This document shows positions 2,829-35,800 of a DNA stretch of 40,000 bases, in pieces (within the stretch, counting starts at the first letter, position 1; every line of letters begins with the position of its first letter). The stretch comes from Enhygromyxa salina (GTDB lineage: Bacteria > Myxococcota_A > Polyangia > Nannocystales > Nannocystaceae), in assembly GCF_000737335.2 (NCBI RefSeq), contig NZ_JMCC02000022.1:30242-70241 (forward strand), written 5' to 3'. The translations under genes and the position numbers were made by a program. The notes below the pieces were generated by a model, which was not told where the DNA came from, searched no databases, and saw only the letters and a program-made list of their open reading frames with translations.

Positions 2829-5414
2829 ATGCGCCGCGACTGGTACGTCTTCGACTCGTTGTCCGACCTGCTCGACGCTCTGCATCGTGGCTGGCATCGT
2901 GGACCTCCCGAGGATCCGTCCACCCAGTGGCTGGATGCCGCGGTCGAGCGTGCCTGGTTCGCTTTCGCAGCCAGTGACGGGGTCGATCGTCTTGTCTGGC
3001 TCCGGGAGCTGGCTCGTCTGCATGGGGGCACTCTCGAGCTTGCAGTGGGCTTGATTGATCCCGTTGACGCCAAGTTGCTCGCACGCTTCGGGCTGCGCTC
3101 GAGTGTAGTGCAAGAGCACCTCGTGTGGCGGATCATGGATGCGGCCGAGGCCGCGCTGCCGGCTCGGCTGCGCGACCAACTCGCCGTGAGCCTGCCGGTG
3201 GATCCGCACCCTCGACGTGTGTCCCTCGAGGAGCCGCCGGACGGGGTATTGCTGCGCTGCTCGTCGCACGAGCAGTACCGAACCACGACACAGAAATCCG
3301 CAGTGCGTGCGTTGTGCACGATGCCGGCCGGGAAGAGCCTTCTGATCACGATGCCCACGGGCAGCGGCAAGAGTCTGTTGTTTCAGCTGGGTGTTCGGTG
3401 GTGGAACGAGCTCGCCAGCGGTCGAGAGCGCGCCTGCGTGCTCGTCATCGTACCCACGGTCGCGCTCGCGCTTGCGCACGAACACACGTTGCGACGCATC
3501 GAAGGGCTCGAAGGTAGTCAGGCGCTGACCGGTGCCCTATCGGGTCAGGAGCGCGACGAGCTGTTCCTACGTTTTCGCCGTGGAGAAGTCCCGATTCTTC
3601 TTGCAGCGCCCGAGTCCGCGCTGGGCTCGGCCCGGTCGGATCTGCAACGCGTTGCCGCGAGCCTGAGCGACCGCCCACTGGCAGAGCGCGGGCGTCTGGC
3701 CGCAGTGTTCGTGGACGAGGCACACATCATCCACAGCTGGGGGCGGAGCTTTCGACCAGACTTTCAGCGCCTCCCCGGTCTGGTTGAGCGCTTGCGGGCG
3801 AGCAATCCCTCGCTGCGTACGGTGCTGCTCTCGGCGACCGTCGGTCGAGAGGCCAAGCAACTGCTCCGTCGACAGTATGCGAAGGATCTGGAGATGCTCG
3901 AGGTCGCTGCCCAAGCGCCGCGAACCGAGCTGGATTTGTGCATCCACCACTTCGACGACGCCGGGGAGCGCGATGGTGCGGTCATCGACCTCGTTGACCT
4001 GTTCCCGCGGCCGATGCTGCTCTACACGACCGAAGTGGACGATGCCGAGCGGATTCACGCTGCACTATCGGCCCGGGGCTATCAACGTCTCGCCTGCTTC
4101 ACCGGAAACACGGGTCCGCGCGAGCGCCAAGCCATCATCGACGGTTGGCAAGCGAGGAGCATCGACCTCGTCGTTGCAACCTCGGCTTTCGGCATGGGCA
4201 TCGACAAGTCCGATGTGCGCGCCGTCGTCCATGCGTGCCTGCCCGAGGACGCGGCTCGGCTGTACCAGGAGATCGGACGTGCCGGCCGCGATGGACACCA
4301 GGCCCTCGCGGTGGTGCTCTCGAGCCAACAAGACGAGGTGCTCGCCGTGCGCATGGGAACAGGGCAGGTGCTGTCGGTCGTCAAAGCCAAGGAGCGCTGG
4401 ATGTCGCTTCTGGAGCAGGCCCGACGCGACGGGCCGATCTCGGCGGAGACGTTCGAGGTCAGCCTCGACGCGGAGCTCGAGCGTCTGCCTCCGCGCACCG
4501 GTCAGCACCATATGAACTGGAACAGGGCGCTGCTCGTCCAGCTGCAGCGCTACGGGGCCTTGAAAGTGCTCGCCGTCGACGACACCCGCGACCGCTGGAC
4601 GCTGCGCATGCTCGAGCCCGGCCTGCTCGATAGCGACACCGCGGCGCAACTCGTCGAGCAATATCTCGCCGCTCGGAGCAAAGAAACCCGTGCCGCGCAT
4701 CGGCGGGTCGACGCGCTCCTGCAGCTCGTGCGGGCGACCCAACTCGTCGGCGACAACACGGATGCTGCCGAGGACGAAGTGGAGGTCGCCGAGGATCCGC
4801 TCTTGGACTATAGCTGCCTCATGCTTGCGCTGTTCGAGCAGGTCGAGGATTCGCTCGAGATTCAAGAGCCTTGCGGGCGATGCATGTGTTGTCGGAAATG
4901 GAAGCAACAGCCGCCTGGCCGTGTGCGCCACCAGGGGGGCACGGCGGTCTGGACCACGCCGACGGTCGGTGATGACCCCTGGGCCGGAGCACGCGTGGCG
5001 TTTGCTCGAGACCCGGAGTATCGCGATCTGAACAATGTGATTCGGGATTTGGTGCGGGTCGGCTTTCAGCAATTCATCGTGCCGGACGGACGAGCCATGG
5101 ACACCGCGCGCGTGCTGGCTGAGTACGCGGGACATCCAGGCCTGGTTCTGGAGGCTCAGCAGATATTGACGGACGCGTGGCGGGCGATGCCGATCGCAAC
5201 CGTGCTGTTCTTCGATCCCACGCTTGGAGAACGCGCGCGCACGATCCTCTACACGCGGACCCGCGATCACGTCCTGGCGACCCCACGCGTTGGGTTGCTG
5301 TTCGTTGCCCCGCACGATTTACAGCTTCAGGGCAAGCGGTTGAGCGCGATCGCTTCCGCCCACGGACCTATGGACATCGAAGATCTCGTCTATCATTCGG
5401 GAGCCCATTCATGA
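2829..5414 (+). CDS. RecQ-family-like DEAH helicase in the DpdF position
   Basis: Motif I MPTGSGKSLLFQL starts at nt 3351. Motif II and the RecQ signature FVDEAHIIHSWGRSFRPDF follow. Motifs V/VI read ATSAFGMGIDKSDVRAVVHACLPEDAARLYQEIGRAGRDG. A Cys cluster CGRCMCCRKW lies near the C-terminus. I chose ATG 2829 (MRRDWYVF...) over the track start 2727, which overlaps the upstream gene by 100 nt. Confidence 0.85.
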   Translation: MRRDWYVFDSLSDLLDALHRGWHRGPPEDPSTQWLDAAVERAWFAFAASDGVDRLVWLRELARLHGGTLELAVGLIDPVDAKLLARFGLRSSVVQEHLVWRIMDAAEAALPARLRDQLAVSLPVDPHPRRVSLEEPPDGVLLRCSSHEQYRTTTQKSAVRALCTMPAGKSLLITMPTGSGKSLLFQLGVRWWNELASGRERACVLVIVPTVALALAHEHTLRRIEGLEGSQALTGALSGQERDELFLRFRRGEVPILLAAPESALGSARSDLQRVAASLSDRPLAERGRLAAVFVDEAHIIHSWGRSFRPDFQRLPGLVERLRASNPSLRTVLLSATVGREAKQLLRRQYAKDLEMLEVAAQAPRTELDLCIHHFDDAGERDGAVIDLVDLFPRPMLLYTTEVDDAERIHAALSARGYQRLACFTGNTGPRERQAIIDGWQARSIDLVVATSAFGMGIDKSDVRAVVHACLPEDAARLYQEIGRAGRDGHQALAVVLSSQQDEVLAVRMGTGQVLSVVKAKERWMSLLEQARRDGPISAETFEVSLDAELERLPPRTGQHHMNWNRALLVQLQRYGALKVLAVDDTRDRWTLRMLEPGLLDSDTAAQLVEQYLAARSKETRAAHRRVDALLQLVRATQLVGDNTDAAEDEVEVAEDPLLDYSCLMLALFEQVEDSLEIQEPCGRCMCCRKWKQQPPGRVRHQGGTAVWTTPTVGDDPWAGARVAFARDPEYRDLNNVIRDLVRVGFQQFIVPDGRAMDTARVLAEYAGHPGLVLEAQQILTDAWRAMPIATVLFFDPTLGERARTILYTRTRDHVLATPRVGLLFVAPHDLQLQGKRLSAIASAHGPMDIEDLVYHSGAHS

Positions 5415-30223: not shown

Positions 30224-30739
30224 ATGGAACCATTCATCGGCATGATCGTGCAATTTGGCGGCAACTTCGCACCCCGTGGTTGGGCGCTCTGCAATGGGCA
30301 AATTCTCTCAATCGCCCAACACACTGCGCTGTTTTCGATCCTCGGTACCACGTACGGTGGCGACGGCCGCACCAGCTTCGCGCTGCCCGACCTGCGCGGC
30401 CGGGTCGCCATTCACGAGGGCGCGGGGCCCGGCTTGACCCTACGAAAGCTCGGCGAGACGGGCGGCCACGAGACGGTCACGCTCACCGTCAATCAGATGC
30501 CCGCGCACAACCACCCGGTGCTCGCTGACAAGACCCTCGCAACCACGGGCGACCCGGTGGGCAACGCATTTGGGCATACCGGCGACACGTCGATCTACGA
30601 GGCTGGCCCGCCCAACCAGGTCATGGACGCGGACACGATCGGAAACAGGGGCGGCGGGCAACCGGTGGATGTGATGCCGCCGTTCTTGGCCATCAATTTC
30701 ATCATCGCGCTCGAGGGCATCTTCCCGTCGCGGAACTAG
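30224..30739 (+). CDS. Phage tail collar domain protein (MdpB/microcystin-dependent-protein-like), 171 aa
   Basis: MEPFIGMIVQFGGNFAPRGWALCNGQILSIAQHTALFSILGTTYGGDGRTSFALPDLRGR is the classical tail-collar N-terminus. An AGGAGA RBS sits at 30212-30217. The track ORF start at 29612 is an upstream extension overlapping the CotH-like gene. Confidence 0.85.
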   Translation: MEPFIGMIVQFGGNFAPRGWALCNGQILSIAQHTALFSILGTTYGGDGRTSFALPDLRGRVAIHEGAGPGLTLRKLGETGGHETVTLTVNQMPAHNHPVLADKTLATTGDPVGNAFGHTGDTSIYEAGPPNQVMDADTIGNRGGGQPVDVMPPFLAINFIIALEGIFPSRN

Positions 30740-30903
30740 AGCGCCGATCAGTTTGGAGTCGCGGCGTCAGGTGCGTCTGGGGCCGTTCCTGCCTAGGAGG
30801 GAGGCCGAAGCTGTATCCGGCATACTGCGAGCGCCGACCGACAACGGCAGGGGCGGTCCCAGATGTGCCTGGCGTCGTGAATTCAAACTGATTGGCGCTC
30901 TAG
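30736..30903 (+). repeat. Extended imperfect-palindrome hairpin element A (168 nt, CTAG-bounded); candidate structured RNA or MITE-like repeat
   Basis: The 5' arm ctagagcgccgatcagtttgga...cggcgtcaggtgcgtctggggccgttcctgcc pairs with the 3' arm ggcaggggcggtcccagatgtgcctggcgtcg...ttcaaactgattggcgctctag. All 10 arm differences I aligned are transitions that give G:U pairs on the + strand. The apex is gtatccggcatac at 30813-30825. The first CTAG contains the TAG stop of the tail-collar gene. Confidence 0.6.
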
Positions 30904-31065
30904 CAGCCCGTGGTGCAATGCCTCGCGTCGCCTCGCGCCGGGATTTTCGTCGAGATTGAGGAGCCGAAACGCAGCTGTACCGGGCGTACTGCAAGTTTCG
31001 GCGACGAAGAGCTCGGCGGAAAGACCAAGCGAGGCGGTGCGAGGCATTGCACCACGGGCTGCTAG
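30900..31065 (+). repeat. Extended hairpin element B (166 nt, CTAG-bounded), tandem to A and sharing its apex motif
   Basis: The arms ctagcagcccgtggtgcaatgcctcgc (30900-30926) and gcgaggcattgcaccacgggctgctag (31039-31065) are perfect 27-nt complements. Further pairing continues inward with G:U-compatible changes, and gccgaaac pairs with gtttcggc. The apex gtaccgggcgtac (30977-30989) differs from the A apex by a compensatory pair (T...A to C...G). Confidence 0.6.
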
Positions 31066-31352
31066 CCCCGAATCAAGCGCTGCGCGCTCGACTCGGGCCT
31101 ACTATGTCTTCAAGGGGGCTTTCGAAAGCCCCTCGCTTCGGCGGCGGAGCCCCCTTCGCTCACCCCAAACGCTCGCCTGTCGGCTCGTACTAGCCCATCT
31201 CGTTGGTGGGACGATACCAGGCCGCTGCGGCCGGGCGACCGCCTGAGCTTCCTCCACGACACGCGCGCGGAAATCCGTGGGCGTGCTGGTGCAGCGGGTG
31301 TTCGCTGTCGCCGTGCCATGCTAGGTTCCCGGGCAGTCGACGGGAACCGAGA

Positions 31353-32798
31353 GTGCACAAGCCGCTAGCCACTACATTGATCGGACTCCTCGTGTTTGGG
31401 ATTTGGGCGATCGGGCTCAGCGCCACCTTGCAGGCGGCCGCGCCCAGTGGGTCAATCGATGACTTCATCGACAGCGAAATGCCGGCCTCGGGGGCGCCTG
31501 GGCTGGCATACGCCGTCGTGGTCAATGGCGAGATCGTGGAGGTTGGTGCGCGCGGTGTCCTAGAGCTCGGCGAGAATCAGGAAGTGACCCCCGACACGCC
31601 CTTCCTCACGGGCTCGATCTCCAAGAGCTTCACCGCCCTGGCGGTGATGCAGCTCGTCGAAGCGGGCAAGATCAACCTGGACGCGGAGCTGTCCCGGTAT
31701 CTCGACAGATTCTCGGGCGGACCTTCTGGGTCGATCACCATCCGGCAATTGCTCAGCCACACCAGCGGGTTCTCCACGCTGCAAGGGAACGCCCCCCCCG
31801 CGGAGCGCCCAGAACAGAAAGATGAGCTTGCACGCGTCGTCGACCAGCTCGCCACCCTGGCTCCCGCCTATCCACCCGGCACCACCTGGGAATACTCGAA
31901 CCTCAACTATCAGATTCTCGGTCGCGTGATCGAGGTCGTGAGCAACCAGGACTTTCAAACCTATGTGGTGTCCAACATCTTGGTCCCGGTGGGCATGAAG
32001 AACAGCTTTGTCGCCAACGGCGAGGTTCACGAAGAGATGGCCACGGGTCACCTGCCGTGGTTCGGCACCAAGCGCCCGCTGGCCGAAAATCGGACCCGCC
32101 GCAGCACCGCTCCTCAAGGGGGGGTCGTCGCTAGCGCGAGCGATCTTGCCCGCTACATGCAGGTCATGTTGAACGGCAAGGATGATGTTCTGAGCGCCAG
32201 CGGCAAGGCTGCGATGATGCGGCCGGCGAGCGATGCATCACCGTCGTACGGGTTTGGATGGTTCTTGGATGCACAAAGCGGGAGCGTCTGGCACTCCGGC
32301 GCAAGTCCTGGGACCGAGACCCTCGCCACCATGGTGCCCAACGAGCAGACGGGCGTCGTCGTGCTGGTCAACTCGGGGGGCGGACTGGGCTTTGGCGAGT
32401 CGGCGCAGCTGCGCAACGGCATCACCGCCCGTGCGATCGGCGCAGACTACGACGGGGAGGGCAGCCGCTGGGCGCAAAAGGCAACCTTCGTTGCAATGCT
32501 CGTCTTACCCTTCGCGTACTTGTTCAGCATCCTCTGGGCATGGCGCGAGCGAGCTGCGATCCGAGCCAAGTCGGGCCCGTTTGGCGTCTTCAGCCTGTGG
32601 TTCCCGCTGCTCACGACGCTCGGCGCGGCTGGGTTCATCTTCGTGCTGGTGCCCAAGCTGTTTGGCGTCCCGCTGGGAACGCTGCGCCGATTCCAGCCTG
32701 ACTTCGCGCTGGTCCTGAGCGCGACCGCCGTGACCGGCGTGGTGTGGGCGGTGTTCCGGCTTGGCGTGGCCTACAGCGGCAAGTCACGCCAAGCCTGA
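31353..32798 (+). CDS. Serine beta-lactamase-family hydrolase (PF00144-like, AmpC/DD-peptidase/esterase type) with C-terminal TM helices
   Basis: A signal/anchor (V)HKPLATTLIGLLVFGIWAIGLSATLQA follows GTG 31353. The SxxK motif is SISKSF and the YxN motif is YSNLNY. C-terminal hydrophobic segments are FVAMLVLPFAYLFSILWAW, LWFPLLTTLGAAGFIFVLV and ALVLSATAVTGVVWAVF. The track start 31203 adds an Arg/Pro-rich extension that looks non-native. Confidence 0.75.
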   Translation: MHKPLATTLIGLLVFGIWAIGLSATLQAAAPSGSIDDFIDSEMPASGAPGLAYAVVVNGEIVEVGARGVLELGENQEVTPDTPFLTGSISKSFTALAVMQLVEAGKINLDAELSRYLDRFSGGPSGSITIRQLLSHTSGFSTLQGNAPPAERPEQKDELARVVDQLATLAPAYPPGTTWEYSNLNYQILGRVIEVVSNQDFQTYVVSNILVPVGMKNSFVANGEVHEEMATGHLPWFGTKRPLAENRTRRSTAPQGGVVASASDLARYMQVMLNGKDDVLSASGKAAMMRPASDASPSYGFGWFLDAQSGSVWHSGASPGTETLATMVPNEQTGVVVLVNSGGGLGFGESAQLRNGITARAIGADYDGEGSRWAQKATFVAMLVLPFAYLFSILWAWRERAAIRAKSGPFGVFSLWFPLLTTLGAAGFIFVLVPKLFGVPLGTLRRFQPDFALVLSATAVTGVVWAVFRLGVAYSGKSRQA

Positions 32799-32818
32799 TC
32801 GCGCTTGGACCACCCTGG

Positions 32819-35800
32819 TCACTGCACGATCTTCACCATTGACGACGACCCATGCCCAAACCGCTCGGGCTCGTACATGGCCTCGGCGTGAACCGGCGGC
32901 AGCACGAATGTCCCCAGGTTGGTCGCCCGCGCGGTGTAGCTATATGTGTAGACCCCCGCGCCCAGGTGATCGGCAAACAACAACATTCGGTCATCCCGCA
33001 TTTGCGTGTGATCGAAGCTAAACCACGGGTACCACCAACCCCGGCTCACCTCCGCGTATGGGTACCCCCGGTATCCATAGTCGTAGTCGTAGCCACCGTC
33101 GTAGTTGGCGCCGCCCCCAGACACCCCAACGCTAGTCGAGAAGCGCGGGTTTTGGCCCTCGAACCCACCGGGCAGCGGATCATCAACGACCACGAAGTTG
33201 GCCCGATCCTGCACGGTCAAGGTCAGCGTGACCTTGACGTTGGTCCCCGCCTTCACGCTCCACGAGCCATCGTCGAGCTGCCGGACCGCGTTGGGATCCG
33301 GCTTGTCGGCGCCGCCCTCGGGCAGCGCTTCGTACCGGCGTGAGACCGTGAACCCGCGATCGACCGGATCCATGTGAAAGTCCGCAGGCGCGTAGCGCAG
33401 CCCCAGCCGGTAATACAGCTTGCCCGGCCCCTCTTTGGCCAGCGTGACGCTCTGGACCGACTGGCCAAGCAGCGCCCGCATCGGCAGCTGTTGGTTGACC
33501 TTCGCCATGTCGCGCCCCTCGAATTTGGCCTCGCCCGCGAACATGACGTCGAGCCAGATCCGGGCCACGTAGTCCGGGGTCTCGCTCTCGATCGCGGCGT
33601 AGTAGCGCGACGCGGCCATCAACGCCCACGCGTTGGCGTGCGTGGTGGTCCAGCGCCCGCCGCTGCGAGGGTCGCGGTCCGACATCAAGCCGGCCATGAT
33701 CTTTGGCGCCATGCCTTCGTCGCCGGTCTCCTGGCCCAGCTCGATCAGCGCCATCAAGGCGATCGCGTCGGTCTGCGTGTTCGAGTGCATGAGCGCGGCC
33801 AGACCGTCGCCAGCCGCTTCGGTCTTCGACTCGGCGAAGTGGATCACCCGCGCGTTCTCGATGACGAGATCCTCGAGCTCGGCGAGCACGGCCTCGACCG
33901 GAGCCTTTCGCTTGTAGCGATGCGCGGCGCTCATCAGCAGGATCCGCCCATACAGCGGGATCTGGGACCGCTTGGCCCAGACCTTGTCGAACAGATCCGC
34001 GCCCCGGTCTTCGCGTGACAGCAGCCACAGCGCAAACGCCCGCGTGGTCCAATCGTAGTAGGTGCCCCACCGCGTGGTCACGCCATTGCGCACGTAGCTG
34101 TCTAGATACGCCATCGCGCGACCGAGCTTGGCCTCGTCGACCTCGTAGCCGGCCTGCTTGCCCTCGAGCAGCGCGAGCGTGACCCAGGTCGAGACATAGG
34201 GCCAGCTCTCGCGGCGCTTGTCGTCGCCCCAATAGGTGAAGCCGCCGTCCCAGTTTTGCCGCTGAAACAGGCGCTCGATCCCGTCGCGCGCCAGCGCGTC
34301 ACGCCGGGCCCGATCATGGACATCGGCGATCGGGAAGTCGTTCAGCACGTCGCCAAGCGCGAAGATCGGCAGCAGCCGGCTCGCGGTCTGCTCCGAGCAC
34401 TCGTAGGGGTAGCTGACCAAGAAGTCGACAGCGTCCTCGAGCCCGTTGAGCGCGGTCGAAGACATCGAGACATCGAGCCCGCCAAACCCAGGCAGCGCGT
34501 CCTTGGGCAGCTGCACTTGGCGCTGCACGGACGCCGAGGTCATGCCGTAGTCGGCGAACGCCTGCTTGGTCGCGGGCACCAACACCGGAATGTCGAGCTG
34601 GGTCGCGTCGCGGCCCTCGTTTGACAGCGCGGCGAACTGCAATCGCATGATCCCCACGCCGTCAACGGCCATCGGAAACCGGACCTCCCGGGACTCGCCT
34701 GGCGGGATCTCGAGGGTGTCCTGCACGCTGCCGAGCATGGTCACGTTGACCCCACGGGTCCCAACCATGATCGCCTGGGTCGTCTCGCTCTGGTTGTCGA
34801 CCATGACCGAGGCCTCGAACTGATCGCCCATGTTCAAGAACCGGGGTAGCGAGGGCCGCAGCATGATCGTCTTGCGGACCCGGACCGAGGCCTCGCCGCT
34901 GCCAAAGCGATCGGGCCGGTCGGGATCAATGGCCACGGCCATGATCCGAAAGCTGGTCAGGTTCTCGGGCATCTCGATCGTCGCGCTGGCCCGCCCCTGC
35001 GCGTCGGTCTTCAGCTCCGACTCGAAGTAGGCCGTGGTCGCAAACAAGGTGCGCAGCGACACCTCTTGGGCCATCGCCACGTTGGCGTCGAGCGTGGTCG
35101 TGGCAGTGCTCGCACGCGCGGGAGAGGGCGCGGGCGGTGGCATGGCCCCCGGCGCGGACTTGCGCTTTGACTCCTTTTCGGCTTCAGCGGGCATGTTGCC
35201 GCGGCCGCCAAACCCTGCCCCAGAGCCCCTGCCGTAGCCCGACCCAGACCCGCCGCCGCCGCCGCCCTTGCCGATCAGCCCCGTGGTGCCAAGACCGATC
35301 GTCCCCTCACCCGTCCCGCCGCCGCCGCGCCCGGTCCCGACCAAGCCCAGGCCGCCCACGCCGTAGGCCTCGCCGACCTCCCCACCCATGAGGCCGCCCG
35401 TGTCCGCCGAGGGCACGTCCGGGGTGGGCCCGACCGAGGGCTTGGGTTGCTGCTGGGCGTCGCGCGGCAACACCAGGCTGTGATCCGCGAACAGCCCAAC
35501 CTCGCCGGGCCGCTGGTAGTGAAAGAACGAGAGCGGATCCGGGGTCTGGTAGCCCATCAGGCTGAGCACGCCCTCGTCGACCACGAACAGCGCGACCGCA
35601 GCGGGGATCGACTCGCCGTCGACCGCGTGGGTGTGCAGGTCGACCCGCAGCTTGGTCCCAGGCTCGACGCGATCGAACTCGGGCTCGACCTCGACGACCA
35701 CGGTCTTGCTGTCCTTCGACACCATCAGCTGGACCTGGCCGCTGGCCGCCGCGGGGGCGCCCAGATCCTGATCTTCGGGGGCCCCCGCCACGCGGGTGCG

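Follow-up and report, generated by a model that had tools for sequence, protein, structure and literature searches.

ERIC, Correia and similar small palindromic repeats have a history of several decades, yet the way they move and the reason for their resemblance to RNA hairpins are unsettled. ERIC in Enterobacteriaceae, Correia/NEMIS in Neisseria and RUP in Streptococcus pneumoniae insert at TA with duplication of the target, and we know of no transposase for ERIC or Correia. Over its whole length, a palindromic TA-targeting MITE of this kind can form one long RNA stem-loop (PMC3184786). REPs are 20-40 nt long, with one end marked by a GTAG or CGTC tag (PMC3733652), and the single-strand hairpins of REPs and REPINs are recognised by a trans-acting enzyme (PMC3479197, PMC3733652). 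Two further systems are tied to CTAG: IS630, by the account of Tenzen and Ohtsubo (1991) that PMC2170065 cites, inserts at the TA within CTAG and duplicates the TA, and the IS5-derived MITEPsy1 targets CTAG with a 4-nt CTAG duplication (PMC3189936).

Here we analyse two adjoining hairpins, A and B, in a 40,000-nt stretch of Enhygromyxa salina DNA (contig NZ_JMCC02000022.1; hereafter the window). A and B are copies of a previously undescribed small mobile repeat family of marine myxobacteria; they are mobile repeats inserted at CTAG and not a dedicated single-locus RNA gene. No description of MITEs from Enhygromyxa, Plesiocystis or other myxobacteria was found in the literature searched. The family has the descriptive properties of MITEs, namely small size (below about 500 bp), no transposase, TIRs and dispersed copies, and it is most like ERIC/Correia/RUP and REP/REPIN, from which a conserved centre, a fixed length, a CTAG at both ends and wobble pairing on one strand set it apart.

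The likeness to ERIC, Correia/NEMIS and RUP lies in the 100-170 bp size, the absence of transposase coding and the dozens of dispersed copies; unlike these elements, the hairpin family has termini that vary beyond CTAG, a conserved centre, covariation along the full length of the arms, and mismatches that are nearly all wobble pairs on one strand. It shares no sequence similarity with them, and its host clade is Nannocystaceae. REP and REPIN elements (RAYT/TnpA-REP, HUH Y1) are likewise imperfect palindromes with a tetranucleotide tag that occur in mosaics and in both orientations, but the hairpins described here, at 166 nt and with the palindrome CTAG at either end, fall outside the definition of a REP; REPINs, moreover, conserve the base of the stem and vary the loop, which is the reverse of what we observe. 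IS630/Tc1-mariner, IS5/IS1182 and their MITEs (MITEPsy1 among them) have the CTAG/YTAR target in common with the family and, save for a weak resemblance of the A-type end, no terminal repeat; DDE-mobilised MITEs are not known for strand-specific wobble or a conserved apex. Rickettsia palindromic elements (RPE) resemble the family in that palindromic repeats can lie in frame within protein genes; unlike RPE, the hairpins are mostly intergenic or at stop codons, and there is no sequence relation. With structured ncRNA families the hairpins share a structure backed by covariation, and they match no Rfam family.

The CTAG-bounded mosaic in the window

Positions 30736-31193 are a mosaic of three repeats (A, B and a third repeat) placed head to tail, with CTAG junctions in common (Table 1). 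A tail-collar-domain gene flanks the mosaic on one side and a beta-lactamase-fold gene on the other, with a convergent alpha-2-macroglobulin gene 3' of the latter. The window holds two occurrences of the apex motif defined below, where 0.08 would be expected, and a covariance model of the family run over the window matches A and B and nothing else. The third repeat has 10-22 related pieces in loci of E. salina SWB005 by BLAST and belongs to the same family as positions 3268-3400 of one of these loci (L082); its minus strand folds more stably than its plus strand (-64.3 vs -49.0 kcal/mol).

Table 1. Features of the mosaic and adjoining genes, in window coordinates
Feature	Position	Strand	Basis or remark
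Element A, 168-nt CTAG-bounded hairpin repeat, A subfamily	30736..30903	+	fold -127.5 kcal/mol, z -13.6; covariance model 115 bits
Element B, 166-nt CTAG-bounded hairpin repeat, B subfamily	30900..31065	+	fold -124.6 kcal/mol, z -14.5; covariance model 167 bits
Apex of A, GCTGTATCCGGCATACTGC	30810..30828	+	stem with U-U mismatch, CCGGC loop
Apex of B, GCTGTACCGGGCGTACTGC	30974..30992	+	sequence, fold, motif match
Left boundary CTAG of A	30736..30739	.	includes the tail-collar TAG stop codon
Junction CTAG common to A and B	30900..30903	.	sequence
Junction CTAG common to B and third repeat	31062..31065	.	sequence
Third CTAG-bounded repeat, 132 nt, other family	31062..31193	-	BLAST; not a full palindrome
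Tail-collar domain gene, 171 aa	30224..30739	+	Pfam PF07484, E 3e-28; start codon as assigned here
Beta-lactamase-fold gene	about 31203-32798		3' of mosaic

The layout of A and B, with their common CTAG and with the tail-collar gene ending in the first CTAG, had been proposed in an earlier note made from the letters of the window, and its coordinates are confirmed, as are further claims of that note. Folded as RNA, the plus strands of A and B form hairpins from end to end, and for each element 0 of 200 shuffles was as stable; the minus strands give less stable RNA folds (-85.0 kcal/mol for A and -109.4 kcal/mol for B). The outermost 27 nt of B's arms are perfectly complementary in our arm alignment. 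A and B have unrelated arms (26-39% identical, about random) and similar centres: identity is 67% in the apical module, 84% in the 19-nt apex and 100% in the CTAG ends, and the apices differ by a compensatory pair (gtaT/Atac in A vs gtaC/Gtac in B) and both contain a U-U mismatch.

To type the mismatches, the left arm was aligned, colinearly and in a strand-neutral way, to the reverse-complemented right arm; arm complementarity extends over about 74 nt per arm. The earlier note had counted ten differences in A, all transitions giving G:U pairs on the plus strand; the direction holds without exception (12/12 transitions are G:U-compatible on this strand), while the count rises to 12 transitions and is joined by 1 transversion. 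The transitions in the stem of B are of the G:U type, as had been claimed for the segments that the note aligned, and the apparent A:C positions sit in an internal loop.

A hairpin family in Nannocystaceae

We scanned one genome per species for the apex motif GCTGTAYCSGGCRTACTGC and obtained more than 100 sites. Among the matches listed, 98 had full flanks, and 80 of these passed the threshold for hairpin energy; removal of 2 coding sequences of Micromonospora leaves at least 78 family hairpins of 166-168 nt, with element boundaries set by distances anchored on CTAG. CTAG stands at both ends in 63 of the 78 among the matches listed; in these 63 copies the left CTAG begins 74 nt ahead of the apex, and the right-hand CTAG ends 73-76 nt past it. 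The flanks differ from copy to copy. Hosts are almost all Nannocystaceae and overwhelmingly E. salina SWB005 among the matches listed; the others are E. salina SWB007, Plesiocystis pacifica, an Enhygromyxa MAG, Nannocystaceae bacterium ST9 and Nannocystaceae/Myxococcota MAGs. Apex matches in Micromonospora, Ensifer, Chloroflexota and similar genomes were rejected as chance occurrences in coding DNA. Phage, plasmid and viral collections gave no family match, with one chance apex match in a viral coding region, and Rfam gave no match at gathering score, its sub-threshold matches being generic long hairpins of miRNA-precursor models.

The largest subfamily, of B type, has at least 54 copies with mutual identities above 90%, which lie mostly in E. 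salina SWB005; element B itself clusters with this SWB005 subfamily at 80% identity. To the A type belong element A itself, two E. salina SWB007 copies (L043, L044) and, in SWB005, a remnant of 55 nt (L082). By clustering there are at least 7 further subfamilies beside the A and B types, and covariance-model and context searches added two more whose apex is diverged and structurally equivalent (L009, L111). With 11 representatives as its basis, a covariance model finds about 95 copies within the loci of the apex scan, internal-deletion derivatives without the apex among them. The arms of different subfamilies can barely be aligned and have kept their pairing; the ends beyond CTAG vary among subfamilies, even within one genome, and the apex is common to them, an invariance that is in part circular, as the copies were retrieved by the apex motif, L009 and L111 having come by other routes. 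The only open reading frames in these 166-168 nt are derived from the repeat itself, and none is a transposase gene. Contig ends truncate many copies, and in SWB005 many of the contigs stop within the repeat.

In 26 of the 63 complete copies listed, a terminal CTAG holds the in-frame stop codon of a long, high-GC3 open reading frame, a frequency that would be expected if C-TAG stops are the main CTAG sites in G+C-rich genomes. A minority of copies lie in frame within annotated genes, most being intergenic or at stop codons: one is read through in a 479-aa open reading frame of SWB005 (L037), where it has the ends CTAG...CTAT and adds a net 162 nt, and another lies inside a kinase of Pseudenhygromyxa. 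No insertion-free homologue of the L037 reading frame was found in the database. Other copies depart from CTAG at one end (TTAG...CTAG in two, and CTAG...CTAT in one, that of L037), variants that would be compatible with TA having been duplicated in a CTAG-like target, and variants at inner positions (CGAG, CTCG, CTGG) are also present. For the tail-collar protein of the window there is no exact match in the database, and its nearest orthologue, in SWB007, is 77% identical. At this orthologous locus the collar gene ends in TGA, the macroglobulin gene follows 44 bp on, and both the repeats and the beta-lactamase-fold gene are missing; as the loci differ by a whole gene and the collar proteins by the identity just given, they are too diverged for an insertion point at base level.

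Stacking is not peculiar to the window: head-to-tail copies also occur at L051/L052, with a spacing of 162 nt. The near-identical scattered copies, the CTAG bounds and the stacking on common CTAGs identify the hairpins as mobile repeats inserted at CTAG. The earlier note had offered nested insertion of mobile palindromes into CTAG as an alternative to selection on structure; the CTAG-bounded, stacked and dispersed copies support part of the first, and part of the second is supported as well, as follows.

Covariation and wobble pairs on one strand

In the alignment of 11 sequences the consensus hairpin has 64 pairs. Standard pairs fill 94% of its cells, against 73% after shuffling and 31-40% when the partners are slid by 1-3 columns; compensatory double changes, with both sides altered, are found at 48 of the 64 pairs; and covariation scores 0.611, compared with 0.204 for shuffles and no more than 0.16 for the slid controls. 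For every one of these pairing and covariation measures, the observed value was matched by 0 of 500 shuffles. The conserved apical module consists of a short stem-loop and two internal loops, and its Y/R pair is C-G in 7 of the 11 representatives and U-A in the other 4.

The mismatches left in the arms have a direction. On the strand defined by the apex, isolated arm mismatches in 12 representatives are of G:U type in 59 cases and of A:C type in 2 (strand-neutral alignment), and private variants in copies of the young B subfamily turn Watson-Crick pairs to G:U in 47 cells vs 18 cells to A:C; since representatives and copies are related by descent, neither these counts nor the covariation cells above are independent events, the direction being uniform across subfamilies. 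Of the 80 threshold-passing matches listed, 74 fold more stably on the apex-defined strand, as do 14/14 subfamily representatives. Deamination of one strand was considered as the sole cause of the G:U excess and rejected, because compensatory transversions are common; a 14-copy sub-lineage of B, for example, has the compensated transversion pair G12U/C155A. In a tally of variant sites in the B copies, private C-to-U and A-to-G changes are both enriched over their complements, which likewise speaks against deamination as the sole cause.

These observations strongly support selection on a single-strand structure of one particular strand. The earlier note had argued for selection on RNA structure: the selected single-strand fold stands, on the 48 covarying pairs, the 59 vs 2 mismatches and the uniform strand preference of the representatives, while the specification of RNA does not follow from energies, as ssDNA parameters give an equal asymmetry (for A, -58.7 vs -40.4 kcal/mol). 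On these calculations, which agree in asymmetry under both parameter sets, the folded strand may be either RNA or ssDNA. RNA helices accommodate tandem U:G/G:U steps well, and DNA is destabilised by them. Several subfamilies have kept such steps, which are easier to reconcile with RNA than with DNA.

Explanations for the fold and for its spread

Pairing of this extent could in principle arise by chance or by a local inverted duplication without any family, and the high G+C content of these genomes does favour spurious pairing, though nothing more; the folding z scores (Table 1) and the more than 100 related sites in other genomes refute such an origin, to which we attach practically no credence. 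A more serious alternative is that the hairpins are structured RNAs of the host, that is, cis elements of 3' UTRs (terminators, mRNA stabilisers or RNase III sites) or small-RNA precursors that were spread by duplication and kept for the host's benefit. The strong covariation, the G:U pairs on the plus strand with tandem U:G/G:U steps in several subfamilies, the stop codon adjoining many complete copies, and the orientation of A and B along the upstream tail-collar gene, at whose stop codon they begin, are all in keeping with this explanation. Orientation relative to genes is nevertheless random over the family: by a crude GC3/ORF heuristic, 14 elements are co-directional and 16 anti-directional with their flanking genes, 15 lie between convergent genes and 10 between divergent ones, and this lack of any relation to gene direction disfavours a cis-acting RNA role for the host. 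Also against a host RNA, no promoter or terminator consensus was found at the elements, no Rfam family corresponds to them, some copies are in frame within open reading frames, and the dozens of near-identical copies in one genome, together with an orthologous locus of a sister species that has no copy, point to recent selfish spread. We consider a host function of this kind unlikely. The unrelated gene orientation, the stop-codon contacts, the in-frame copies and the near-identical burst in one genome make up the pattern of a selfish mobile element rather than of a host regulatory RNA.

It might then be asked whether the hairpins are ordinary double-stranded DNA MITEs, i.e. deletion derivatives of CTAG-targeting DDE insertion sequences of IS630, IS5 or IS1182 type, with arms that are transposase-bound TIRs and a hairpin that is a by-product. 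The CTAG/TA-type ends agree with this, as do the CTAG targets of IS630 (in the citation of PMC2170065) and MITEPsy1. In related genomes, CTAG-flanked insertion sequences of the IS1182 family abut hairpin ends at two loci (L073, L111), with a remnant at a third (L110); their terminal repeat and the A-type end agree in 15 of 22 positions, at most a weak resemblance that concerns the A subfamily alone, and one of the genomes with such neighbours also has an IS630-family (DDE_3) gene. Constraint on double-stranded DNA, by contrast, cannot produce the excess of G:U-type over A:C-type mismatches, and it leaves the complementarity of the full 74-nt arms and their constant length without explanation; coexisting subfamilies have different ends beyond CTAG, and the conserved part is the centre. 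The earlier note had named many near-identical scattered copies with conserved termini and variable centres as the mark of a plain MITE: at least 54 near-identical copies with conserved termini exist, and yet covariation is strong and the apex is the conserved part. Because the ends differ among subfamilies beyond CTAG while the apex is common, one TIR-binding transposase would be a poor fit for the whole family. An origin as ordinary MITEs seems to us quite improbable.

The search for an autonomous partner combined long-range pairs of CTAG plus arm, tblastn with an IS1182 transposase, and the open reading frames between paired copies. In 700 kb of loci it yielded no transposase flanked by elements; in the examined loci no RAYT (Y1 HUH) gene lies between paired copies, and no insertion sequence with B-type ends was seen. 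Copies that neighbour each other within 8 kb have the same orientation in 11 cases and the opposite one in 9, a mixture that does not favour a lagging-strand ssDNA route of the IS200/IS605 type.

We therefore regard it as probable that A and B are non-autonomous, CTAG/TA-targeting MITE-like repeats whose strand-specific single-strand fold, in RNA or ssDNA, serves their mobilisation; we do not think that the fold serves the neighbouring genes. In such a scheme an element would insert at CTAG, probably at its central TA, with the C-TAG of a stop codon often serving as the target. Every inserted copy, being CTAG-bounded, would create two new CTAG targets, and this supply of targets would account for head-to-tail stacks such as that of A, B and the third repeat. 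The family is constrained to keep one strand, here the plus strand, as an end-to-end hairpin of fixed length; we infer that this strand-specific fold, whether RNA or ssDNA, is recognised by mobilisation machinery acting in trans, the apex being the putative recognition module and the CTAG ends, about 74 nt away, the putative sites of cutting and joining. The structural constraint would then act on the proliferating copies, that is, on the form that is recognised and moved. A bolder version, in which the hairpin itself is the transposition intermediate (a fixed-length RNA or displaced DNA, bound by the enzyme at its apical module and copied or joined into CTAG), strikes us as doubtful. If the intermediate were RNA, the family would be a bacterial, SINE-like retroelement recognised by its structure, a mode of mobility undescribed for miniature repeats of bacteria.

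For questions of this kind the family offers an unusually clean signal, with unrelated arms, constant length, tip and CTAG ends, and wobble pairs nearly confined to one strand, and it allows a test of the need for a single-stranded form, be it RNA or DNA, in the spread of miniature repeats. There are practical consequences as well: the repeats break Enhygromyxa assemblies, provide stop codons, occur inside annotated proteins, and make CTAG targets for insertion sequences in genomes otherwise poor in CTAG. The window itself is depleted of this tetranucleotide, with 23 sites vs 49 expected, and 8 of the 23 fall within 30736-31563.

Breadth of the hairpin family and its derivatives

Two subfamilies of the CTAG-bounded hairpin repeats retain the architecture and CTAG ends of the family and keep a stem-loop at the apex, of different sequence; both escaped our exact-motif scan, and the hairpin family is therefore wider than the scan shows. 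Internal-deletion derivatives, which look like the products of palindrome-stimulated deletion, include copies of 121-126 nt without the apex, a 55-nt remnant of element A type (L082), and a 20-nt mini-palindrome (CTAGCAGCCCGGGCTGCTAG), 16-nt tandem arrays of which adjoin full copies. A nearly perfect hairpin of ~204 nt in E. salina SWB007 is unrelated to the family; its arms include the apparent beginning of a sequence coding for a signal peptide.

Features and their coordinates (local to each locus; L-numbers are loci in other genomes)
Feature	Locus	Coordinates	Strand
Subfamily with diverged apex	L009	4493-4662	-
Subfamily with diverged apex	L111	356-520	-
Internal-deletion derivative	L011	118-238	
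Internal-deletion derivative	L061	2485-2610	
Internal-deletion derivative	L036	3726-3793	
Internal-deletion derivative	L063	2468-2519	
Internal-deletion derivative	L080	2780-2815	
Internal-deletion derivative	L082		
In-frame copy of element B type	L037	1407-1572	-
In-frame copy of element B type	L107	2656-2821	
Contig ends inside copies	L002, L009, L010, L013, L041, L067, L075, L084, L086, L088, L090, L091		
IS1182-family insertion sequence	L073	1395-3040	
IS1182-family insertion sequence	L110		
IS1182-family insertion sequence	L111	518-2179	
Third CTAG-bounded repeat, 132 nt	window	31062-31193	
CTAG-rich intergenic region	window	30736-31563	
Beta-lactamase-fold gene	window	31203-32798	
Hairpin weakly matching covariance model	window	32727-32825	
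Orthologous SWB007 site lacking the beta-lactamase-fold gene	L104	5519-5563	
Unrelated ~204-nt hairpin (SWB007)	L043	6150-6353	
G+C-rich segment	window	23000-28000	

Copies inside proteins and at contig ends

Copies of the element B subfamily lie in frame within two annotated proteins: a 479-aa ORF of E. salina SWB005 (L037), lengthened by a net 162 nt (54 codons), and a Pseudenhygromyxa Ser/Thr kinase (L107). The repeat-encoded peptide is also present in several SWB005 "hypothetical proteins". Many contigs of this strain stop within a hairpin-repeat copy, and these repeats are a likely reason why its assembly is fragmented.

CTAG sites and neighbouring repeats

The IS1182-family insertion sequences (1646-1662 bp; terminal repeat CTAGAGAGGCGATCCGCTAA) are flanked by CTAG at both sides and abut hairpin-element ends, with the CTAG common to both; such ends seem to be preferred CTAG targets of these insertion sequences. 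CTAG is rarer than expected across the window (23 observed vs. 49 expected), and 8 of the 23 sites cluster within ~830 bp of intergenic sequence. The third repeat of this mosaic belongs to a different family: it is not palindromic over its full length, and it contains a small terminal hairpin as well as a stem resembling a terminator; 10-22 pieces related to it occur at the SWB005 loci. Because its - strand folds better than the other strand (-64 vs. -49 kcal/mol), this repeat is also strand-asymmetric.

A gene-sized difference beside the mosaic

At the orthologous locus of SWB007 the tail-collar gene is followed after 44 bp by the macroglobulin gene, and the beta-lactamase-fold gene that lies downstream of the repeats in the window is missing; the two genomes differ by a gene-sized indel adjoining the mosaic. 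The covariance model, built from 11 family representatives, weakly matched (19.8 bits, E 0.02) a hairpin lying between the beta-lactamase-fold gene and the macroglobulin gene convergent with it; this hairpin is probably a terminator rather than a family member. Elsewhere in the window, G+C reaches 0.70-0.74 in one segment vs. 0.60-0.65 over most of the remainder.
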